This document shows, in pieces, positions 20,084-61,449 of a DNA stretch of 64,000 nt. Every line of letters begins with the position of its first letter. The first letter of the stretch is position 1. The stretch lies in contig DAOUJG010000015.1 in the NCBI GenBank assembly GCA_034423015.1, forward strand, positions 12,104 through 76,103, written 5' to 3'. Source of the stretch: Dehalococcoidia bacterium (GTDB lineage: Bacteria; Chloroflexota; Dehalococcoidia; Lucifugimonadales; JAGWBF01). The translations under genes and the position numbers were made by a program. The notes under the pieces are model-generated. The model did no database searches and was not told the DNA's origin. It saw nothing but the letters and a program-made list of their open reading frames with translations.

Positions 20084-21445
20084 TCAGGCCAGGGTCAGGA
20101 TGGACGTCAGCTCGGCGATGTCCTCCACGTCTTCCAGCCGGTCGATCAGGGCCACCAGCCTGTCGGCGCCTTGGGGGTCCAGCTTCCCGGTGTGGCCCCA
20201 TCCGCGCCGGAACTTGGTCATGGCCTCCTCCTCGGTGAGGGGGCTCTCCGGACTGCCCTTCAGGGCCTGGAGCTCCTCGTGGATGGCGCCGTTGCTGGTG
20301 TAGACGTCCAGGTACAGGGGTACCATGGCCTGGGGGTCGTCGTTGTCCGGGTCCTTGACCACCTCGACCCGGGATGCCAGGTCGTAGATGGCGTCGTTGG
20401 CGAGGGCCTCTGCCTCGAAGTGGCTGATCCAGACGTCGCCGTAGAGCAGGGCGACCGCGACGCAGTACTGCAGGCAGAGCCGCGCGCTCTGGGGCGTCAT
20501 CTTGCCCTTGACGGCGGGACGGCCCACCAGGCGCATGCTCAGCTCGGGCACGGTTACCTTGACCGCCTTCACGTCCGCCGGGTCCAGCCTGTGCTCGGCG
20601 CGGACTTTGAGGGCGGCTTCTACTCCTCCGTTGGCCAGGCGTCCCGTGCAGTAGGGCTTGTAGGCCAGGTGCTCGATCTCGAAGGTGCTCCCCAGGCCAT
20701 CCAGGGGCCGCTCCGCATCGTAGTCGCCGCCCTCGAACAGGCGATAATACCCGTAGAGGCCCTCCAGCAGGCCCCTGGGCCCCGTCATGCCCTCGGCGGC
20801 CAGGTTGGTGGCGACGACCGCGGAACGTGCAGCGAAGGCAGGTTGCATGGTGTTCACCAGCACCCCCTCGGAGTGGGACTGGAGGGTGCCCGAAATCTGC
20901 GAGTACATCACCCCCAGGGCGTCCAGGGTCCGCTCCCGGTCCAACCCCGCCAGTCGGGACCCGCCGTACACGGCCCCGAAGGCGCCGCAGGTGGCCGGCC
21001 GGTAGAACACCAGCCCCCGCTTGCACCCCCAGCCCACCCGGCAGGCCAGGTCCACCCCCATGGCCATGGCGGCCAGGAACTCCTTGCCGGAGACGCCGCC
21101 GGTCTGCTCGGCCACGGCCAGGGTGGCCGCCGTGATGGAGGACATGGGATGGATGCCCGCGGGGTGTATGCAGTCGAACTCCTTGCTGTGGACCAGGGTG
21201 CCGTTCATCAGGGCCGCGCTGGGAGCCGGGACCTTCTTCCCGGAGAACCAGGGGGTGCTCTCCGGCTCGCCTCCCCACTTATGGACGGTCCGGCCGACCA
21301 CCTGTGCCTCGGGGGACGTGAACGCGGCTGCACAGACGCCGAAGGTGTCCAGGAGGAACCGTTTCGTCGCGTCCACCGCCCGTTCGTTGAGGTCCTTGTA
21401 CTCCAGGTCCACGGTGCCCCTCAGCAGGCGCTCTATCAAGTCCAT
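20084..21445 (-). CDS. MmgE/PrpD family protein (2-methylcitrate dehydratase-like), copy 1
   Basis: 453 aa. The N-terminus ...ERAVDATKRFLLDTFGVCAAA and overall similarity to 57815..59182 (HPSSPTLPA / HPMSSITAA region) match the family. Confidence 0.85.
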   Translation of the reverse strand: MDLIERLLRGTVDLEYKDLNERAVDATKRFLLDTFGVCAAAFTSPEAQVVGRTVHKWGGEPESTPWFSGKKVPAPSAALMNGTLVHSKEFDCIHPAGIHPMSSITAATLAVAEQTGGVSGKEFLAAMAMGVDLACRVGWGCKRGLVFYRPATCGAFGAVYGGSRLAGLDRERTLDALGVMYSQISGTLQSHSEGVLVNTMQPAFAARSAVVATNLAAEGMTGPRGLLEGLYGYYRLFEGGDYDAERPLDGLGSTFEIEHLAYKPYCTGRLANGGVEAALKVRAEHRLDPADVKAVKVTVPELSMRLVGRPAVKGKMTPQSARLCLQYCVAVALLYGDVWISHFEAEALANDAIYDLASRVEVVKDPDNDDPQAMVPLYLDVYTSNGAIHEELQALKGSPESPLTEEEAMTKFRRGWGHTGKLDPQGADRLVALIDRLEDVEDIAELTSILTLA

Positions 21446-22488: not shown

Positions 22489-22686
22489 AATATCGGTATC
22501 CGGATCGACACCAAGACCTCAGACGCTCTCGGGTTGCAGGACTTGGGGACAGTTGACCACTACGACAACTCATGGGGCCTGCTCTGACGTAGACAGGGTC
22601 ATTCTCAAGATATCGATGGGAACTGCGAGCCTATCCTTCACTGTCTTGCCTGACTCTCTAGGGGACCCCATTTCTCGGGACTGCCT

Positions 22687-23088
22687 CTAGCGCCCAGCCA
22701 TTCTTCTGATCCACCCAACAATGAGCCGCCAGTGGGACAGCCACGCCCAACTGTTTCGCCACGCCTTGCCGAAACGATCTAGGGCTGAACCGGCCTTGAC
22801 GTCGTTTTCCGGGTGTTGTGCCCACCGTACTTGGTTGCGTTGGACCCAATAGTGGGATTGGCAAGGCAAGCTCCAACTGCCGATTGATGGGGACAGGGAC
22901 ACAGATTCCCCATCAAACATCATACTCCAACCGTCCGGGTTCAGTGGTGTGACCACCTCATTGCCGCATCCGCAGCAGCATAGATGCGTCGCCGTCACGA
23001 ATGGTACAGACACGTAGAGCACGCCTTCCACCAGCTCATCCGGAATGTAGTGGACGAATTCGTAGTCAAGAGAGTCCATCTTATTCAT
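22687..23088 (-). CDS. DUF6527-like Cys-rich small protein, third gene of the Ubl operon
   Basis: 133 aa. YEFVHYIPDELVEGVLYVSVPFVTATHLCCCGCGNEVVTPLNPDGWSMMFDGESVSLSPSIGSWSLPCQSHYWV matches my recollection of DUF6527. Its ATG overlaps the E1 stop in an ATGA arrangement (23085-23088). Confidence 0.7.
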   Translation of the reverse strand: MNKMDSLDYEFVHYIPDELVEGVLYVSVPFVTATHLCCCGCGNEVVTPLNPDGWSMMFDGESVSLSPSIGSWSLPCQSHYWVQRNQVRWAQHPENDVKAGSALDRFGKAWRNSWAWLSHWRLIVGWIRRMAGR

Positions 23089-24263
23089 GCTTCATTCACG
23101 CTTGTCATCTCATCCACATCGACTACGTAGAAGCTCGAATGACGACTCTGGCGGTCCTGATAGAACTTCATGAGCTTCTTCCACTTGACCACGGCCATTA
23201 CTGCGTTTAAGGCATTAAGCTCGGCGATCTGGATATTCGTGGCGTATTCGTGCTCGCCTTCCTCATCTGTGTATGGGATCATGGATGCGATGTGTCCTCG
23301 CTCATCGCATGTGCTCGCTGTCACCCTCAGCGTACCCAGCAACGAGCCATCCACCTCGTACACACTCATCCCTGCATCAACAAAAGGGATACCGAACTCC
23401 ACCAGTTTTTGGATCACGAACTTCCTGTCCCGTCCCCTGTCAACGGCAACGAACGCAAAATCCATGTTTCGCAACTCCTCAGCGGTCGATTCGTCGACAT
23501 GGTCGTGGACGAATATGTTGTGTCGCATCTTGGAGTAGATACCGGCAAAGTAATCCGCCTTTCTCTGGGTCACCTTCAAGTCTTCGATGGATGATGCGCC
23601 AGGTGCCCTAAAGGCGTTGTGTTGATAGTACTGATCGCCATCGAACAGGTGAAGTTCTCTCACTGGCGTCTTGGCGACTAGGTCAAGGATATATGAGCCG
23701 GTGCCTCCCAGCCCTACGATGGCCACAGGCCCGCAAGTTAGCTTTTGGGTGACGGCTACGATCTCGGCTCGGCTCGAAGCCGTATCCATATACTTGAACA
23801 CCGAGTCGTCGTTCTGATCCTCTACGACCTTGAACACCTGGGCACTGACGCTAGGGTCGATTCTCTGAGCATGTTCGGAAAGGATGTTCGCGTAGGTAGT
23901 CATCTTCTCGTAGTAGTCTGGGTAACCATAACCATCCGTAGGCTTGTGGGAAAGACGGTGATCCGCCACGAACCCGTTGTCCAGCTGCCAGCGACGGCTT
24001 GCATTGATGACCTTCGTCAGGGGGCGTCCTTCATGGTCGCAAGGTGGGCTGCCCGCGAACAGGACGACATGACCGTCTGGCTTGGCAGTAACGTCGCCGG
24101 CTAGCGTCAGTGTTGATATCAGGACACCGAGCTCGATCTCCCGGGATTCTGTGACATAAGGCACGTGTGCCAACAGAAGGTAGCCGGCTCGGACCTCAAG
24201 CGAGTAGCCCTGGTCTTGAAGCCGCTTGAGGTCGGGGCTACGACTTATCAGTTGTTGAGACAT
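23085..24263 (-). CDS. E2-like N-terminal domain fused to a ThiF/E1-type adenylyltransferase
   Basis: 392 aa. The Rossmann motif is VAIVGLGGTGSYILDLVAKTPVRELHLFDGDQYYQHNAFR, followed by FAFVAVDRGRDRK (the E1/ThiF/MoeB adenylation fold). The N-terminal ~135 aa (…GYLLLAHVPYVT…GHVVLFAGSPPCDHEGRPL…) have a His-x9-Cys arrangement reminiscent of UBC-fold prokaryotic E2s that occur fused to E1. Confidence 0.8.
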   Translation of the reverse strand: MSQQLISRSPDLKRLQDQGYSLEVRAGYLLLAHVPYVTESREIELGVLISTLTLAGDVTAKPDGHVVLFAGSPPCDHEGRPLTKVINASRRWQLDNGFVADHRLSHKPTDGYGYPDYYEKMTTYANILSEHAQRIDPSVSAQVFKVVEDQNDDSVFKYMDTASSRAEIVAVTQKLTCGPVAIVGLGGTGSYILDLVAKTPVRELHLFDGDQYYQHNAFRAPGASSIEDLKVTQRKADYFAGIYSKMRHNIFVHDHVDESTAEELRNMDFAFVAVDRGRDRKFVIQKLVEFGIPFVDAGMSVYEVDGSLLGTLRVTASTCDERGHIASMIPYTDEEGEHEYATNIQIAELNALNAVMAVVKWKKLMKFYQDRQSRHSSFYVVDVDEMTSVNEA

Positions 24264-24510
24264 TAAAGACCGTCCCGTCGTGAACCTTCACGCTTCCACC
24301 TTCAGCGAGCCTTCCACTTGGGGGCCGTCCAGCGCCGTTGCTGTAGAGCACGTGGAAGATTATGTTGGGGTTAGACGGGACTGGGTCATAGGCGAGCCCT
24401 ACGACTTGGTCGAAGGAGATCTCCCCATCAGAGGAGAGAGTCTTCAGAGAAACCATCTTCTCCCGCCCGTTCACTATAATCTTGACCGTATCCTTGTCAG
24501 CCACCATCAT
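24238..24510 (-). CDS. Single beta-grasp ubiquitin-like protein (Multiubiquitin-domain-like)
   Basis: MMVADKDTVKIIVNGREKMVSLKTLSSDGEISFDQVVGLAYDP...GGSVKVHDGTVFNVSTTDKS follows the I-V-N-G...(I/V)(S/T).....(V/I)..LA.......G..F pattern of the Multiubiquitin family. An AAGGAG RBS lies 4 nt upstream of the ATGATG. The 3' end overlaps the E1 start by 26 nt. Confidence 0.7.
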   Translation of the reverse strand: MMVADKDTVKIIVNGREKMVSLKTLSSDGEISFDQVVGLAYDPVPSNPNIIFHVLYSNGAGRPPSGRLAEGGSVKVHDGTVFNVSTTDKS

Positions 24511-24539
24511 CAGACTCCTTTTGTGTGTCCCACAAAATA

Positions 24540-24567
24540 TTGACAGTACCAAGCCAGGTACTATATA
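24540..24567 (+). promoter_or_regulatory. Sigma70-like promoter for the HTH/ImmA genes (TTGACA - 16 nt - TATATA) with an embedded AGTACC-N6-GGTACT inverted repeat
   Basis: TTGACA at 24540-24545 and TATATA at 24562-24567. The inverted repeat at 24545-24562 occupies the spacer. Confidence 0.5.
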
Positions 24568-24571
24568 CATA

Positions 24572-24600
24572 ATGATAATGCCGACCATCCATCTTGTCAA
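24572..24600 (-). promoter_or_regulatory. Sigma70-like promoter for the Ubl operon (TTGACA - 17 nt - TATCAT)
   Basis: On the minus strand, TTGACA is the reverse complement of 24595-24600 and TATCAT is the reverse complement of 24572-24577. The two -10 boxes of the divergent promoters are only 4 nt apart. Confidence 0.5.
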
Positions 24601-24642
24601 CTCATAGCGGTACAGTGTCCCATTTCTCGTACAGGAGGCGCG

Positions 24643-25122
24643 ATGGACCCAATCAGGCTTGATCTCAACGACCTGGGGCGTCTCGTCGTGGCAGAGCGAA
24701 ACCGCAGAGGGATGAGTCTTCGAGAAGCGGCTCTTGCAACAGGAATACCCTTCAACACGCTAGCGCGCGTAGAGAAGGGTCACGTCCCCGACCTCCCAAA
24801 ATTCAAGAGGCTCGTCGAATGGTGTGGGGCTGATATCCGACAGTTCTTTGAACCCCAAGAGAAGGTGACGGCTACCACGGATGTCATCGCTGAGCACCTT
24901 CGTGCCGACCGCAACCTTCCCCCTGAAGCCGCAGAGCGGATCGTAGGAATCGTCAGCGAACTCTATCACACGCTTGCACGCCCCCAAGCAATCGCTGCCG
25001 TGCATTTGCGGGCTGCGAAAACCCTCCGTCCAGACGCAGCTCATGTCCTGGGATTGTTGCTTAACGACATGAATGAAGCACTAGTGGAGGAGCTCGTCGA
25101 TGGCCCTGCGGAGAGGATTTAA
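24643..25122 (+). CDS. XRE-family helix-turn-helix transcriptional regulator (ImmR/CapH-like)
   Basis: RRGMSLREAALATGIPFNTLARVEKG is a canonical HTH_3 motif. AGGAGG RBS. It is followed by an overlapping ImmA-type protease gene. Confidence 0.85.
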   Translation: MDPIRLDLNDLGRLVVAERNRRGMSLREAALATGIPFNTLARVEKGHVPDLPKFKRLVEWCGADIRQFFEPQEKVTATTDVIAEHLRADRNLPPEAAERIVGIVSELYHTLARPQAIAAVHLRAAKTLRPDAAHVLGLLLNDMNEALVEELVDGPAERI

Positions 25123-25678
25123 ATCCGAAGCCGAGAGAATCGCTAGGAGTGTGCGGACAGACCTAGGAATCAGTGCGTCTCAATCTGTCACTCCCGAGAT
25201 GCTCGCCGATTTGCTTGGCATTGAAGTCAGAGCAGGAGATGAACTGATACCACGCAAGAGATTTGTCGAACTAGAAAAAGTTCAGCCTGGGGCGTTCTCG
25301 GCATGTACGTTCCGGCCGTCTACTGATCGCGTCGTCGTCGTATACAATCCGCTCTCCGCCGAATCGCGCCGGCGGAGCGATCTGGCCCATGAACTTGCGC
25401 ATACTCTCCTCCAGCACGAGTTGAGCCGGATAGAGAAGCTTGGCGATGTCACCTTCCTCTCGTGTGATCCGACTCAGGAAGAAGAGGCTGCCTGGTTGTC
25501 TGGATGTCTCCTTCTACCCAGAGCATTGCTCTTGGCGGAGGTACACAGTGGATCAAGCGCGAAAGATATCGCACGAAGATGTGGGGTCAGCGAGGCCATG
25601 GCACGGTACAGACTAAATGTCACTGGAGTGCTCAGGCAAAAACAGGCGCTCGAGAAGAGGAGCCGTTTTCGAGAATAG
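25100..25678 (+). CDS. ImmA/IrrE-family zinc metallopeptidase (CapP-like)
   Basis: The HEXXH motif occurs in RRRSDLAHELAHTLLQHE, with a downstream EEEAAWLSGCLLLP segment typical of ImmA/IrrE (M78). It overlaps the HTH gene by 23 nt. Confidence 0.85.
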   Translation: MALRRGFKSEAERIARSVRTDLGISASQSVTPEMLADLLGIEVRAGDELIPRKRFVELEKVQPGAFSACTFRPSTDRVVVVYNPLSAESRRRSDLAHELAHTLLQHELSRIEKLGDVTFLSCDPTQEEEAAWLSGCLLLPRALLLAEVHSGSSAKDIARRCGVSEAMARYRLNVTGVLRQKQALEKRSRFRE

Positions 25679-25793
25679 GAGGCGTGGATGCCAAATCTTG
25701 GCGCGGCTGTTCCCTCCGATGAATCTGTCTCAATTCGACCACCGGCATCAACGCCCGCGAGTCGTCCCTCGGAAAAGGGGGATAAAGCACTGC

Positions 25794-46208: not shown

Positions 46209-46295
46209 GCCGAGGTGGTGGAACTGGTAGACACGCCATCTTGAGGGGGTGGTGGGCGTAAGCCTGTGTGGGTTCGAATCCCGCCCTCGGCACCA
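46209..46295 (+). tRNA. tRNA-Leu (anticodon GAG), CCA encoded
   Basis: Folded by hand. The acceptor is GCCGAGG/CCTCGGC. The anticodon stem is CCATC/GGTGG with loop TTGAGGG. There is a long variable arm, the T-loop is TTCGAAT, and the 3' end is ACCA. Confidence 0.9.
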
Positions 46296-46343
46296 GTGGC
46301 GAGGCACCGTTGGAGCCCCTGGGCAGCGGTGGGCATCCCTAGT

Positions 46344-46420
46344 GGCGACGTAGCCAAGTGGACTAAGGCGGAGGTCTGCAAAACCTCTATTCGGCGGTTC
46401 GAATCCGCCCGTCGCCTCCA
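46344..46420 (+). tRNA. tRNA-Cys (anticodon GCA), CCA encoded
   Basis: The acceptor is GGCGACG/CGTCGCC. The anticodon stem is GAGGT/ACCTC with loop CTGCAAA. The T-arm is GGCGG-TTCGAAT-CCGCC, and the 3' end is TCCA. Confidence 0.9.
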
Positions 46421-46434
46421 TACGAGCACTAGGA

Positions 46435-46475
46435 CGCGGGAGGAAGCCAGCCGTCCCTCCCGCGTTTTTCTTTTT
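46435..46475 (+). terminator. Rho-independent terminator between tRNA-Cys and the second tRNA-Leu
   Basis: CGCGGGAGG-aagccagccgtc-CCTCCCGCG is followed by TTTTTCTTTTT. Confidence 0.75.
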
Positions 46476-46485
46476 GGCAAACGGC

Positions 46486-46571
46486 GCCGAGGTGGCGGAA
46501 CGGTAGACGCGGCGGACTTAAAATCCGCTGCCCGCAAGGGCGTGTGGGTTCGAATCCCTCCCTCGGCACCA
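46486..46571 (+). tRNA. tRNA-Leu (anticodon TAA), CCA encoded
   Basis: The acceptor is GCCGAGG/CCTCGGC. The anticodon stem is GCGGA/TCCGC with loop CTTAAAA. There is a long variable arm, the T-loop is TTCGAAT (one T:T mismatch in the T-stem), and the 3' end is ACCA. Confidence 0.85.
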
Positions 46572-57814: not shown

Positions 57815-59182
57815 TCAGGCGCCGGTGGTCGTGTTCGGCCGGCTCCGGGGCAGGCGGGTGAGCCTCAGGAGCTCCCCGACACCGGAGAGCCGGTCCACCT
57901 CCCACAGCATGGCCAGGAGGCGCTCCACCCGTTTGGCGGGCAGGACGCGGGCGGCCAGGGCGCGGAACTTGGCCTCCAACTGGGAGTCGGTTATGGGGTT
58001 CTGGGGGGCGCCGGTGGCGTGGGGCACCTTCTCGGTGTAGGAGCGGCCGTCCTTCAGCGTAAGGGTGACCTCGGCGGCGTCTTCGGGCATGGCCCCATCG
58101 ACCTCAGCCCGTATCCGGCTTCGGAGGGCCGCCACCTCGGAGTCGACCACCCGGGCGTCGGTGTACTGGGCGGGGAATGCCGCGCCGTCGATGAAGCCCA
58201 CGGCCATGGAGTGCTGGAAGGAGAACTTCCCCTCCAGCCCGATCTTCGGGTCCGGCCTGTCCATCAGCTCCAGCACCAGAGGCTGGACCCTGGCGTCCAC
58301 GCGCTCCACCTGGTTGGCCGGCTCCCCGACCCGGGACCGCAGGGCAATCATGGCGTCGATGAGGGGATGGGCCACCACCCCGCAGGCGTAGGGTTTCAGC
58401 CCGTTCATCCGCAGCTCCCACCGTTCTCCCAGGCCCCGGGTGACCTCCGCCAGGTCGTGCTCCCGGGACATGACGGCGGCGAAGCCCCGCCGTCCCTCGA
58501 GTATCCGGGTGGCGGAGGTGAAGCCCCGGCCCGCCAGAAGGGCCCCCAACACGCCCGCCCGGGCCGCCATGCCGGGATGGAAAGGCTTGGTCATGGACCC
58601 CATCACCTCTCGCACGCCCGCCGCCTGGGTGCCCGCGACCCCCATCCCGTGGACCATCTGCCCGGTGGAGAGGCCCATGAGCCGGCCGGCGGCGGCCACG
58701 GAGCCGAACACACCGCAGGTGCTGGTGATGTGGAAGCCGGCGTCGTAGTGGGCGGGGTGCACCGCCATCCCGATGCGGCAGCAGGCCTCCATGCCCAGCA
58801 CCGAGGCGGCCAGGAGCTCGCTGCCGGTGGACCCGTGGTGCTCCCCCGCCGCCAGGGACGCCGGAAGGGTGGGGGAGGAGGGATGGATGACCGTGGGGAA
58901 GTGGGTATCGTCGTAGTCTTCCAGGTGCCCCAGGTAGCCGTTGGCCAGGGCCGCATTCTGCAGGGAGGTGCGCATCCCCACGCCCAGGACCGAGGCGTTG
59001 GGCCTGCCGCCCTCGCGGCGAAACACGTCCAGCATGATGTTCAGGGACGGGTCCCCGGCCGCGTAGAGGGCGACGCCCAGGAAGTTGATGAGGCACCGTT
59101 TTCCCTCGTGGAGCACGGGCCCCGGTATGGCTTCCGCGGGCGTCTCCACGACGAACCGCGCCAGGTCTTCTGTGACGTTCAT
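57815..59182 (-). CDS. MmgE/PrpD family protein, copy 2
   Basis: 455 aa. FVVETPAEAIPGPVLHEGKRCLINFLGVALYAAG, DDTHFPTVIHPSSPTLPA. It is a paralogue of 20084..21445. Confidence 0.85.
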   Translation of the reverse strand: MNVTEDLARFVVETPAEAIPGPVLHEGKRCLINFLGVALYAAGDPSLNIMLDVFRREGGRPNASVLGVGMRTSLQNAALANGYLGHLEDYDDTHFPTVIHPSSPTLPASLAAGEHHGSTGSELLAASVLGMEACCRIGMAVHPAHYDAGFHITSTCGVFGSVAAAGRLMGLSTGQMVHGMGVAGTQAAGVREVMGSMTKPFHPGMAARAGVLGALLAGRGFTSATRILEGRRGFAAVMSREHDLAEVTRGLGERWELRMNGLKPYACGVVAHPLIDAMIALRSRVGEPANQVERVDARVQPLVLELMDRPDPKIGLEGKFSFQHSMAVGFIDGAAFPAQYTDARVVDSEVAALRSRIRAEVDGAMPEDAAEVTLTLKDGRSYTEKVPHATGAPQNPITDSQLEAKFRALAARVLPAKRVERLLAMLWEVDRLSGVGELLRLTRLPRSRPNTTTGA

Positions 59183-59374
59183 GGATGGCTACCTCGATTG
59201 TAAGACTGAGGAATCGCCCCGGGACCAGGTCCCGGGGTCCGTGAGGCCTCCCCCGGACTGCCTATACTACAGTGCCGTAGCGGGAATTGCTAACAGTCTT
59301 GTGAAGGCCTCGTTTATCGTCATTACCATCAAGAATAGCCCTCAGCACCCTCCTTCATCATTCCCACCATCATC

Positions 59375-59433
59375 ATTCCCGCGCACGCGGGAATCTACGT
59401 CCCCTACCTCTGGGTCCCGGCCTTCGCCGGGAC
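59375..59433. repeat. Two-hairpin GC-rich intergenic repeat element
   Basis: ATTCCCGCG-ca-CGCGGGAAT (59375-59394) and GTCCCGGC-cttc-GCCGGGAC (59414-59433). It is preceded by a tcatcattccc direct duplication. Confidence 0.5.
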
Positions 59434-59565
59434 GACGATGGGGAACACACCCTTGCCGGGGCTCGTGCCGGCGGAACACGTCATGGTATCGTGCTGACAC
59501 AAACTCATATTATTACTCGTATTTAATTGCTGATATTGTGAAATTATTCCTAAATAATATATCTA

Positions 59566-59595
59566 TTGACAATAATATTTCCATCATGCTACTTT
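59566..59595 (+). promoter_or_regulatory. Candidate sigma70 promoter inside a strongly AT-rich tract (TTGACA - 18 nt - TACTTT)
   Basis: TTGACA at 59566-59571 and TACTTT at 59590-59595, about 65 nt upstream of the SBP start at 59659. Confidence 0.4.
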
Positions 59596-59658
59596 CTACA
59601 AATACCCGTATCTCCGCACAGAACGACGGTTTACATAGATACTCTGGGGGGTGCTGTC

Positions 59659-61449
59659 ATGGCTTACGTCAGGTTGCCCAAGATTAGATGGTTGATATTG
59701 GCTTCGGTGATAGCGGTCCTGCTGGTGGGCGTCGCCTGCGGTGAGGAGGCCACCGAGGCGCCGACTACCGCTCCCGTGGCGACGACTGCGCCGCCAACGA
59801 CGGCTCCAGCCACGACGGCTCCCGCCACCACCGCCCCGGGGGTTACCCAAGTTGCCCCCACGGCAGCGCCACAGCCGACGCCCACACCGGTGACAGACCA
59901 GCCCGAACTGGGAGCCAAGCTGACTTTCGCGCTGAACAACTTCGGCAACGAGCGCATAAACCCCAACAACGCCACGAAAGAGGGCGGTATGGGCGGCTTG
60001 ATCCACATGTCCGACTTCCTGATGGGGGTCACGCCGGACAACGTGCTGTCCAACGCCTGGGGCTGGGCCGACTCCTGGGAGCAGGTGGACGGCGCCACCT
60101 GGGACATCATCATGAAGGACTACATCGTCGACCACGACGGTGTGGAAGTGGACGCCGAGGACTGCGTTTGGATCACCAACCACTGGGCTTCCGACGAGGG
60201 CAACAGCCCCGGCGGCGCCATCAGCCCCGGCTGGAGAGTGATCTTCGACCGCACCGAAGCCCTGGACAAATACCACTGCCGGATACACCTGAAGCAGAAC
60301 TACGCCTTCGTGTTCAACATCCTCCCGCCCATAGGCGGGGCGGACCTGTACGCCTGGCCCAAGCGGGGATACGTGGAGATCGCCGGCGGCGACGACGCCA
60401 AGTTCGAGGAGATCGGCGCTCCCATGACCGGGTTCGCTAAGCTCGTCGAGCGCAGGCTGGGCCAGTTCTGGCGTCTCGAACGGTTCGACGAGTACTACGC
60501 CGACGCGGAGTTCCACTTCAAGTTCCGCGAGATGGAGACGCTCCTGGCGGCCGAGGACGCGCCGCGCCTGGCCCTGGTGAAGACGGGAGCCGCGGACATA
60601 GCCAACATGTCCGGCCCGTACGTGGAGGAGATACGGGCGGCGGGCCTGATAGTGGACGGGCCCGAGAAGGTGGACATCGTCTACCAGGGCTTCTACCAGA
60701 CCTACGACCCCGGCCACTGCACCAACAAGCTGGAGGTCCGCAAGGCGATGAACCTCGCCGTGGACGCCGAAGACATCATGACCGGCCTCTGGCCCCCGGG
60801 AACGGCGGAGCGGGCCATCACCGCCTTCACCAGCCCCTATGACGAGAGCTGGAACCCGGCGTTGCAGCCCTACGGCTACGACCCCGAGGAGGCCCGGCGG
60901 CTTCTGAAAGAGGCGGGCTGCGACGGCTTCAAGTTCATCTCCTACGGCTACGCCTTTGCCCAGGGCCCGGAGATGAGGGACATGACCGACGCCATCGTCA
61001 CCTACCTGCAGGGCGTGGGCATCGACGCCGATTTCGTACCCATCGACCCGGTCCCCATAACGCAAAAGAGGCTGGAAGAGAAGTTCGGCGCCGAGGACGG
61101 CCCGCCGGTCAGCGGCTCCCACTGGCAGCTCGGGGCGCGCAACTTCGCCGACAAGATCCGCGTCCACGGGCTCTGCGCCAGCCAGGGCGGCTCGGTGTGC
61201 AACATTCCCGAGCCCGACCTGTGGCAGCAGAAGATGCTGGACTACGCGGCGATAATGGACCCGGTGGAGCGGCGGAAGGTCGCGCAAGTCATGGGCCAGG
61301 AGCTGTACGACATGTACCTGGGCATACCCATCGCCTACCGCAACGCCATCTGGGCCCTGAACCCGGACACCCTGTGCGGCGAGTGGCAGCCCATCAACGG
61401 CACGCCGGCCCACCCGATGTTCAACACCCTCACACCCTGCGACAACTAG
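59659..61449 (+). CDS. ABC transporter substrate-binding lipoprotein, family 5 (orphan, no adjacent permease or ATPase genes)
   Basis: MAYVRLPKIRWLILASVIAVLLVGVACGEE (lipobox), a TAPxTTAP-rich linker, and a family-5 core similar to the other three SBPs (…CTNKLEVRKAMNLAVD…, …YGYDPEEARRLL…). Confidence 0.85.
   Translation: MAYVRLPKIRWLILASVIAVLLVGVACGEEATEAPTTAPVATTAPPTTAPATTAPATTAPGVTQVAPTAAPQPTPTPVTDQPELGAKLTFALNNFGNERINPNNATKEGGMGGLIHMSDFLMGVTPDNVLSNAWGWADSWEQVDGATWDIIMKDYIVDHDGVEVDAEDCVWITNHWASDEGNSPGGAISPGWRVIFDRTEALDKYHCRIHLKQNYAFVFNILPPIGGADLYAWPKRGYVEIAGGDDAKFEEIGAPMTGFAKLVERRLGQFWRLERFDEYYADAEFHFKFREMETLLAAEDAPRLALVKTGAADIANMSGPYVEEIRAAGLIVDGPEKVDIVYQGFYQTYDPGHCTNKLEVRKAMNLAVDAEDIMTGLWPPGTAERAITAFTSPYDESWNPALQPYGYDPEEARRLLKEAGCDGFKFISYGYAFAQGPEMRDMTDAIVTYLQGVGIDADFVPIDPVPITQKRLEEKFGAEDGPPVSGSHWQLGARNFADKIRVHGLCASQGGSVCNIPEPDLWQQKMLDYAAIMDPVERRKVAQVMGQELYDMYLGIPIAYRNAIWALNPDTLCGEWQPINGTPAHPMFNTLTPCDN

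Follow-up and report, generated by a model that had tools for sequence, protein, structure and literature searches.

What does a compact islet of five genes encode in the genome of a Dehalococcoidia bacterium, and does it represent a new type of system or a further copy of a known one? The islet occupies positions 22,687 to 25,678 of a 64,000-nucleotide (nt) stretch of contig DAOUJG010000015.1 (hereafter the window; assembly GCA_034423015.1), and an earlier note, made from the sequence alone, had read it as a candidate inducible defence system in which a ubiquitin-like protein (Ubl), an E2/E1 fusion and a DUF6527 protein form a conjugation operon under a divergent helix-turn-helix (HTH) and protease gene pair. 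We assign the three minus-strand genes, with a probability of about 0.85, to a canonical Type II Bub operon (formerly '6E.2' or 'DUF6527') that is under the control of a divergent repressor/protease pair of the CapH/CapP–ImmR/ImmA–DdrO/IrrE superfamily. In support of this identity, the published definition of Type II Bub fits the operon gene for gene and the family profiles pass their curated cut-offs. The '6E'/'DUF6527' operons were renamed Bub (bacterial ubiquitination-like) by Ye, Gong, Chambers and Corbett (bioRxiv 10.1101/2024.11.21.623953; cited as Ye et al. 2026 in PMC13373217), and the '6E/Bub-like' class considered in the earlier note was correct. The islet is an already described kind of system that was horizontally acquired, and it provides a fresh, uncharacterised example rather than a new type of system.

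The islet holds five open reading frames (ORFs), three overlapping on the minus strand and two overlapping on the plus strand, and both their coordinates and their overlaps are as they had been called: bubA and bubBD share 26 nt, bubBD and bubE share 4 nt (ATGA), and the HTH and protease genes share 23 nt. The motifs singled out beforehand (IIVNG, GLGGTGS, DGD, NAFR, VAVDRGRDRK, His65-x9-Cys75 and HELAH) are likewise all found in the translations. The genes and the sites between them are these:

22687-23088, minus strand: bubE, 133 amino acids (aa), a DUF6527 zinc-dependent Ser-His peptidase (Pfam DUF6527, 1.5e-24).
23085-24263, minus strand: bubBD, the E2-E1 fusion, 392 aa (DUF6791, 1e-56, and ThiF, 1.9e-13).
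24238-24510, minus strand: bubA, the single-beta-grasp ubiquitin-like protein (Ubl1), 89-90 aa, ending in ...TTDKS (Multi_ubiq, 4e-11).
24238-24263, minus strand: the 26-nt out-of-frame overlap of the bubA stop and the bubBD start (ATGTCTCAACAACTGATAAGTCGTAG), with the same overlap in relatives.
24572-24600, minus strand: the sigma-70-type bub promoter, TTGACA-17 nt-TATCAT, matching 11 of 12 consensus positions.
24546-24561, both strands: candidate operator O1, the palindrome GTACC-N6-GGTAC, kept in 10 related loci.
24609-24633, both strands: a second cluster of GTAC half-sites (GGTACAGTGTCC...GTACA), a putative second operator.
24643-25122, plus strand: the gene of a CapH-like XRE-family repressor, 159 aa (HTH_3, 1.1e-6; HTH_31, 2.2e-6).
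25100-25678, plus strand: the gene of a short CapP/ImmA-like HExxH zinc metallopeptidase, 192 aa (Peptidase_M78, 2e-17).

Searching the five proteins against Pfam placed all of them above the curated cut-offs (Multi_ubiq, DUF6791 with ThiF, DUF6527, HTH_3 and Peptidase_M78) and confirmed each one, so that a Ubl/E2-E1/DUF6527 conjugation operon under a divergent HTH/M78 pair stands, and does so as a gene-for-gene match to Type II Bub. The islet shares with that type its three genes in the same order, the E2-E1 fusion and the lack of a JAB peptidase (no JAB domain matched in Pfam in any of the five proteins), the catalytic Ser, Arg and Tyr of BubBD, the C4 zinc site and Ser-His dyad of BubE, the TDKS end that BubA has in the solved E. 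coli protein, and an upstream pair of HTH and peptidase genes such as accompanies ~31% of the catalogued operons. Four features had been listed as departures from the characterised systems (no JAB deubiquitinase, E2 fused to E1, a Ubl without a Gly-Gly end and a DUF6527 partner), and all four are present, but because together they are the published definition of Type II Bub they are not novel. The differences from the studied members of the type are that the islet BubA has one beta-grasp domain where the studied E. coli protein has three, that its BubBD and one from E. coli share 45% identity, and that its regulator protease is short and has no GAF domain. Since 40% of Bub Ubls are reported to consist of one beta-grasp domain (bioRxiv 10.1101/2024.11.21.623966), the islet BubA falls within the range of the family. 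Conservation of gene order agrees with the assignment. A scan of one genome per species returned at least 570 relatives, and in the best 80 of these loci, which came from Chloroflexota, Actinomycetota, Acidobacteriota, Cyanobacteria, Proteobacteria, Bacteroidota and others, the order BubA-BubBD-BubE was kept in 79, so that the homologues are syntenic as the earlier note had supposed. Both an HTH gene and an M78 gene lay within 2.5 kb in 33 of the same 80 loci, against a literature figure of 31%.

We evaluated BubBD, which carries the catalytic residues of conjugation, by profile, alignment and structural model. It consists of an E2-like domain (residues ~1-145; nt 23829-24263), a disordered linker (145-174) and a ThiF/E1 adenylation domain (~175-384), with the Pfam matches spanning residues 10-161 (DUF6791) and 172-384 (ThiF), and it scores 538.9 bits against NCBIfam PRK06153.1-4 (cut-off 352; E 7e-162), having more than 7,900 homologues. 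Its key residues are His65, Ser105, Lys107, G184xGGxG189, Asp208/Asp210, Arg219 and Tyr340. Aligning 25 homologues of 55-85% identity showed Ser105, His65, Arg219 (within QHNAFR) and the glycines G184, G186, G187 and G189 to be invariant, and Tyr340 and Lys107 to be at least 90% conserved, the sole exception at Tyr340 being an alignment gap; no cysteine was invariant in this alignment. Bub enzymes are reported to work by way of intermediates that are oxyesters and not thioesters, formed on a crossover-loop Tyr and an E2 Ser, and in BubBD of E. coli ZDHYS365 each of the substitutions R219A, Y342F and S106A abolishes conjugates (bioRxiv 10.1101/2024.11.21.623953). One Type II Bub operon, different from that of ZDHYS365, turned up by blastn in three of 5,426 complete E. 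coli genomes, and when BubBD of this operon (L084) was aligned pairwise with the islet protein, Ser105, Arg219 and Tyr340 stood opposite Ser, Arg and Tyr. The earlier note had offered a cysteine (His65-x9-Cys75) as the E2 active site, a candidate that we reject because Cys75 is not invariant, being His in one homologue (P0116), and because Ser and Tyr are the residues shown to act in this family, for which the islet counterparts would be Ser105 and Tyr340.

Structural modelling supported the E1 part of this layout. The AlphaFold2 (AF2) model of full-length BubBD reached a mean predicted local distance difference test (pLDDT) score of 79, with Tyr340 lying in a low-confidence loop (335-343), as fits the mobile crossover loop expected of the family. 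Its top fold matches in the PDB were the crystal structures of Citrobacter BubCD (E=5e-12, E1 part), with ThiF, UBA5 and MccB ranking below. The E2 domain alone (residues 1-150) was modelled at pLDDT 86.6 and shows the order of helix, four-stranded sheet, loop and helix that is found in E2s, so that the model is compatible with a UBC fold.

The identity of the Ubl is anchored by a solved structure. BubA matches beta-grasp domain 3 of the Type II BubA in PDB 9CD2 (E=3.5e-6), and the TDKS end is common to both. Among 80 sequences (the window and 79 genome loci), the last residue of BubA was Ser in all 80, with TDKS in 55. Because Ser, and not Gly or Gly-Gly, ends every Type II BubA compared, the residue adenylated in this type is a serine carboxylate. 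In the islet this end lies at 24238-24249 on the minus strand; ubiquitin, Type I BubA, ThiS and MoaD end in Gly or Gly-Gly instead. We place the bubA start at the ATG at 24510, behind a Shine-Dalgarno sequence (AAGGAG); AAGGAG and ATGATG are both kept in relatives, and gene callers on public copies give an 89-aa product. A longer, 120-aa Ubl ORF initiated at TTG was considered and rejected as an artefact, since that TTG is the first triplet of the -35 hexamer in the best promoter of the region and since relatives and gene callers use the 89-90-aa form. The in-frame extension upstream of bubA (24511-24600, minus strand) would encode a hydrophobic, transmembrane-like segment (WMVGIIIMYIVPGLVLSIFCG), and the DNA there consists of the -35, the -10 and the palindrome and is noncoding.

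The junction of bubA and bubBD is nearly constant. The bubBD ATG stood exactly 25 nt before the bubA end in 79 of the 80 sequences (window and 79 loci, from many phyla), the bubA stop was TAG in 76 of the 80, the nucleotides of the overlap (TTCAATGTC...ACTGATAAGTCGTAGCCCCGACCT) were strongly conserved, and the same 26-nt overlap recurs in the E. coli operon (L084:4452-4477). This conservation is probably explained by the dual coding of two conserved protein termini.

The third protein supplies what had been taken to be missing. The earlier note held DUF6527 to be of unknown chemistry and the operon to be without a deconjugase, a view that is overturned by the finding that BubE is a zinc-stimulated Ser-His peptidase with a C4 zinc site, which takes the Ubl off its targets (bioRxiv 10.1101/2024.11.21.623953); as DUF6527 is this deconjugating peptidase, the operon does carry a deconjugase. 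The precomputed Pfam name of PF20137 (DUF6527) is itself 'BubE'. In the islet protein the C4 zinc site comprises Cys37, Cys39, Cys41 and Cys76 and the dyad Ser68 and His79; across 81 sequences C37, C39, C41, S68 and H79 were 100% conserved and C76 99%, and the spacing fits the published C57/C59/C61...S92...C99..H102 pattern. With E. coli BubE the protein shares 47% identity, and searching the PDB with its sequence gave no match. Its last 33 residues (SALDRFGKAWRNSWAWLSHWRLIVGWIRRMAGR) include five Trp and fit the hydrophobic extension, N- or C-terminal, that is described for Type II BubE.

Comparison with other bacterial conjugation systems sets these features apart. Type I Bub (6E.1; BubAB, BubCD and BubE of Citrobacter sp. 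RHBSTW-00271) shares with the islet the E1 fold, the BubE family and the logic of Tyr and Ser oxyesters, but it fuses Ubl to E2 (BubAB) and JAB to E1 (BubCD), whereas the islet has a separate Ubl ORF, an E2-E1 fusion and no JAB, and the Type I Ubl ends in Gly after processing where that of the islet ends in Ser. The Bil (bacterial ISG15-like) system and Cap2/Cap3 of the cyclic-oligonucleotide-based antiphage signalling system (CBASS) are likewise bacterial E1/E2 conjugation systems, Cap2 being also an E2-E1 fusion, and both are linked to phage immunity; they differ in possessing catalytic cysteines and JAB deconjugases, neither of which the islet has, and Cap2 conjugates the CD-NTase rather than a Ubl, with no CD-NTase in the islet. 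The Cap2 ('E1-E2') models of PADLOC matched BubBD weakly and in its nucleotide-binding Rossmann segment only (best 5.6e-7). PADLOC in its 2023 database gave no match for BubA or BubE, and since that release has no Bub models, a negative result from the defence finder is uninformative.

Turning to control, we found that the two transcription units diverge from a 132-bp intergenic region in which the bub promoter is the strongest promoter-like site, with TTGACA at the equivalent position in relatives. Just downstream of its -10 lies O1, GTACC-AAGCCA-GGTAC (24546-24561), a perfect palindrome, and on the capH strand the same palindrome sits between TTGACA (24540-24545) and TATATA (24562-24567), a promoter for the HTH gene that was judged by eye. 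The half-sites of O1 are identical and its 6-nt spacer variable across the window and 10 loci (L004-L011, L014 and L023), the pattern expected of a site bound by a dimeric repressor. The second GTAC cluster reaches into the HTH gene's ribosome-binding site, and its copy in the window is imperfect; TGTAC-N8-GTACA or GGTAC-N2-3-GTACC stands at its position in L004, L006 and L007, so that on motif grounds it is probably a second operator.

The regulators themselves form a tight clade. The repressor carries its HTH at the N terminus (residues 10-64), the C-terminal domain being long, and it and the protease are 66-87% identical to their counterparts in 11 Bub-linked loci (L004-L011, L014, L023 and L076), in which BubBD is 49-85% and BubE 44-72% identical; the regulators run consistently 10-20 identity points above BubBD, BubA and BubE of the same loci. 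One stretch of 28 residues in the repressor (NTLARVEKGHVPDLPKFKRLVEWCGADI) is nearly unchanged across this clade. In the protease the motifs H97-E98-L-A-H101 and Q126-E127-x-E129 are conserved and an HTH-like segment follows at 149-175. A divergent HTH repressor gene with an overlapping gene for an HExxH zinc peptidase is the arrangement known from CapH/CapP (Lau et al. 2022; Calloji et al. 2026), ImmR/ImmA (ICEBs1) and DdrO/IrrE (Deinococcus). With CapH/CapP in particular the islet shares a palindrome over the promoter, where the repressor is predicted to bind, and the active-site numbering of its peptidase (H97/E98/H101, with a Glu near 128) equals that of E. coli MS115-1 CapP. It differs from CapP in the 192-aa length of the protease, which has no C-terminal GAF domain and is ImmA-like in architecture, and from CapH in a repressor (159 aa) with a longer C-terminal domain, in which Trp35 of CapH has no obvious counterpart as judged without an alignment. 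Matching the protease to the capP profile of PADLOC gave 6.9e-10, but over positions 5-149 of 242 only. A length of ~192 aa is common to 11 close and two distant Bub-linked homologues, and because it is conserved in these 13 the short form is genuine. Cys122 (LSCD), between the HExxH and the third ligand, occurs in 12 of 14 short-form proteases, being absent in two cyanobacterial ones, and from its position is a candidate cysteine switch. The divergent HTH/protease pair of the earlier note stands, and the part that weakens is its inducing signal, which is less certain for a protease without the GAF domain that senses single-stranded DNA (ssDNA). We regard the pair as CapH/CapP-like with an ImmA-like architecture, for which DNA damage or ssDNA may be the trigger.

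These regulators are easily overlooked in one public record. The ENA copy of the contig annotates an antisense ORF of 94 aa (L001:7220-7504; window 24760-25044, minus strand) and misses both the HTH and the protease genes, and the Logan copy calls the HTH gene correctly. The antisense ORF is an annotation artefact, as a result of which the regulators would be missed in the ENA record.

From these parts we propose the following course of events. A dimer of the HTH repressor would bind GTACC-N6-GGTAC, and probably the second GTAC cluster too, and would hold both transcription units low because the sites overlap back-to-back promoters; the conservation of the operator is observed, and its occupancy is our prediction. 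A stress signal, probably DNA damage or phage infection, would activate the HExxH protease, which would then cleave the repressor and de-repress the operon, as protease-driven de-repression has been shown for CapH/CapP, ImmR/ImmA and DdrO/IrrE; for the GAF-less protease of the islet the trigger is predicted by analogy with those pairs and is uncertain. The three tightly overlapping genes would be co-translated. The ThiF domain of a BubBD dimer would adenylate the C-terminal carboxylate of BubA (the Ser of ...TDKS) by means of GxGGxG 184-189, Asp208/210 and Arg219, after which BubA would pass to Tyr340 in the flexible crossover loop and then to Ser105 of the E2-like domain, in both cases as an oxyester and with His65 and Lys107 assisting at the latter, and finally to a lysine of a target protein. 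Homologues from Citrobacter and E. coli ZDHYS365 were shown to carry out ATP-dependent conjugation of this kind (bioRxiv 10.1101/2024.11.21.623953); the residues for it are present in the islet, to which the Tyr/Ser oxyester chemistry would carry over. BubE, with its C4 zinc and Ser68/His79, would cut BubA-target conjugates and so limit the pathway, its Trp-rich tail possibly placing it at the membrane.

Several points weigh against this reading or parts of it, and they are considered here with the explanations that compete with it. The catalytic chemistry is transferred from homologues at 45% identity (E. coli) or farther (Citrobacter Type I). The equivalence of Ser105 to the published S106 of E. 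coli ZDHYS365 is one that we infer from invariance and near-identical numbering, without direct alignment to the ZDHYS365 BubBD. When the E2-domain model was searched against the PDB with Foldseek, the top matches were mostly UBC enzymes (Ubc15, Rad6b, Ubc13, UFC1 and Atg10), but none was significant (best E=0.086; TM-scores 0.36-0.44), and a profile search with the domain found no sequence match to solved BubB. Could the E1 then serve a sulfur-carrier or cofactor system (ThiS/ThiF, MoaD/MoeB) or a peptide-antibiotic one (MccB/PaaA-like), activating a small protein so that it is thiocarboxylated or takes part in peptide modification? ThiF, MoeB, MccB and PaaA do turn up among the matches of the E1 domain by sequence and fold, yet the NCBIfam scores for ThiF and MoeB are 16-26 bits against cut-offs of 152-275 (ThiF 25.6 against 275), BubA has its invariant Ser and no Gly-Gly in any of the 80 sequences, an E2-like domain and a dedicated peptidase are present, the flanks of the islet hold no thiamine, molybdopterin or microcin genes, and the E. 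coli and Citrobacter homologues form protein conjugates, so that we hold this explanation to be effectively refuted already. Nor do we give much credence to a programmed +1 frameshift at the 26-nt overlap, which would yield BubA joined to BubBD, a counterpart of the Ubl-E2 fusion BubAB that Type I operons do encode. That the overlap has the same length in 79 of 80 loci and also in E. coli, and that its nucleotides are conserved, is what such a frameshift would lead one to see, but dual coding of BubA ...F-N-V-x-x-T-D-K-S and BubBD M-S-x-x-L-I-x-R-S suffices for that conservation, no JAB peptidase is encoded in Type II operons to release the Ubl from such a fusion, separate expression of BubA and BubBD from E. 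coli gives active proteins, and no slippery motif was identified; we therefore regard it as highly improbable.

The control and the purpose of the Type II Bub operon are less settled than its identity. Its protease has no GAF domain, ending at residue 192, ~17 residues past the HTH-like segment, and in the characterised CapP and IrrE ssDNA is bound in a groove between the peptidase and GAF domains, so that ssDNA sensing cannot simply be assumed and the inducing signal becomes less certain. The same conjugation machinery might accordingly be governed by an ImmR/ImmA-type switch, its GAF-less protease being activated by a phage protein or indirectly (for example by way of RecA or an anti-repressor) rather than by ssDNA directly. 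Speaking for such a switch are the length kept in 13 loci, the need of the ssDNA groove for both domains, the reported response of ImmA via RecA or RapI, and a capP match confined to the first 149 of 242 profile positions; set against it are the CapP-like numbering of the peptidase domain (H97/E98/H101), the basic R90-R92 at the position of the R90 with which CapP contacts DNA, a loop Cys at the place of the CapP cysteine switch, and the Corbett laboratory census, which counts HTH and peptidase pairs beside Bub as CapH+CapP. We take an ImmA-type switch to be a serious possibility at somewhat less than even odds. A bolder form, in which the whole compact clade (single-domain BubA, 159-aa repressor and 192-aa GAF-less protease) would sense something other than what the CapP ssDNA/GAF groove does, for instance a phage or RecA-type factor, and in which the 26-nt overlap would have a regulatory role in coupling or recoding beyond dual coding, seems to us unlikely. 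As to purpose, the label of defence system given in the earlier note is unproven: according to the defining laboratory, no Bub operon had been shown to protect against phage as of June 2026, and the islet lies among metabolic neighbours and in no defence island. The operon might instead be a general protein-modification pathway of the DNA-damage or stress response, or a selfish cassette without benefit to its host. That the authors who defined Bub did not find phage protection in E. coli agrees with this, as do the metabolic surroundings of this copy, but Bub operons share regulators (CapW, CapH+CapP as well as CapK+CapS) with proven defence systems and tend to mobile or defence loci, Bil and CBASS Cap2, which are related pathways, act against viruses, and the module is patchily distributed and horizontally moved, as is typical of defence genes. 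We consider a role outside anti-phage defence possible but on balance doubtful.

How the Bub operon and its regulators came to this genome can be read from composition and from its closest relative. GC content falls from ~65% in the surroundings to 54.7% across the module, and GC at third codon positions (GC3) is 0.55-0.66 in the five islet genes against 0.87-0.92 in the flanking aldo/keto reductase, PrpD-like and hydrolase genes. The closest relative among the matches listed is a Dehalococcoidia metagenome-assembled genome (L004; BubBD 85% identical), in which the same five genes stand in a different neighbourhood, between RNase Y and chorismate synthase. Nucleotide homology runs from window position 22683 to 25682 (L004:4581-7585) at 84% identity, both limits falling no more than 4 nt from the outermost stop codons and the flanks being unrelated. 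That DNA homology stops at the ends of the module in a different neighbourhood, together with the GC3 contrast, supports acquisition of the module as a unit. The genes immediately flanking it encode an aldo/keto reductase and an Abhydrolase_10 protein, and no integrase, adjacent tRNA or obvious flanking repeat was seen at the islet borders in the window, the flanking intergenic sequences having been inspected. Scanning IMG/VR returned four relatives among 2.9 million viral contigs, a number so low that the module is not mainly phage-borne.

Among the ubiquitin-like conjugation systems known, Bub systems alone run on oxyester (Tyr/Ser) rather than thioester intermediates, and to these the locus adds a minimal example, with a one-domain Ubl in a 3.0-kb cassette of five genes that has sharply defined ends and comes from a high-GC environmental organism. 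It leaves knowledge of this kind of system unchanged and raises no new question alone. Three details of the family came out of the comparison, namely the C-terminal Ser of Type II BubA, the 26-nt overlap, and the combination of a conserved GTACC-N6-GGTAC operator with a GAF-less protease; neither 'C-terminal serine' nor 'frameshift' nor a relevant 'overlap' stands in the preprint (10.1101/2024.11.21.623953) as far as its text is searchable.

The E. coli operon used for comparison (L084) belongs to CP61_Sichuan (NZ_CP053730.1, 1331609-1341782) and encodes a BubA of 251 aa; it lies directly downstream of a gene for a 1,136-aa protein with a UvrD-helicase domain and beside an ISVsa5 transposase, and the HTH/peptidase pair is not annotated there. 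Elsewhere in the window, two other patches of lower GC (34-37 kb and 59-60 kb) were considered as possible defence genes and rejected, being ABC-transporter genes or ORFs without a Pfam match. The somewhat lower-GC stretch at 33.5-38 kb holds mostly peptide/oligopeptide ABC transporter genes (SBP_bac_5, BPD_transp_1), and the dip at 59-60 kb two ORFs (59085-59687 and 59664-60113) without a Pfam match. The only tRNA genes of the window, three in number (Leu-GAG, Cys-GCA and Leu-TAA; 46209-46571, plus strand), lie ~20 kb from the islet and adjoin no low-GC segment that was examined. The window also carries two MmgE/PrpD-family paralogues, at 20084-21445 and 57815-59182, both on the minus strand.

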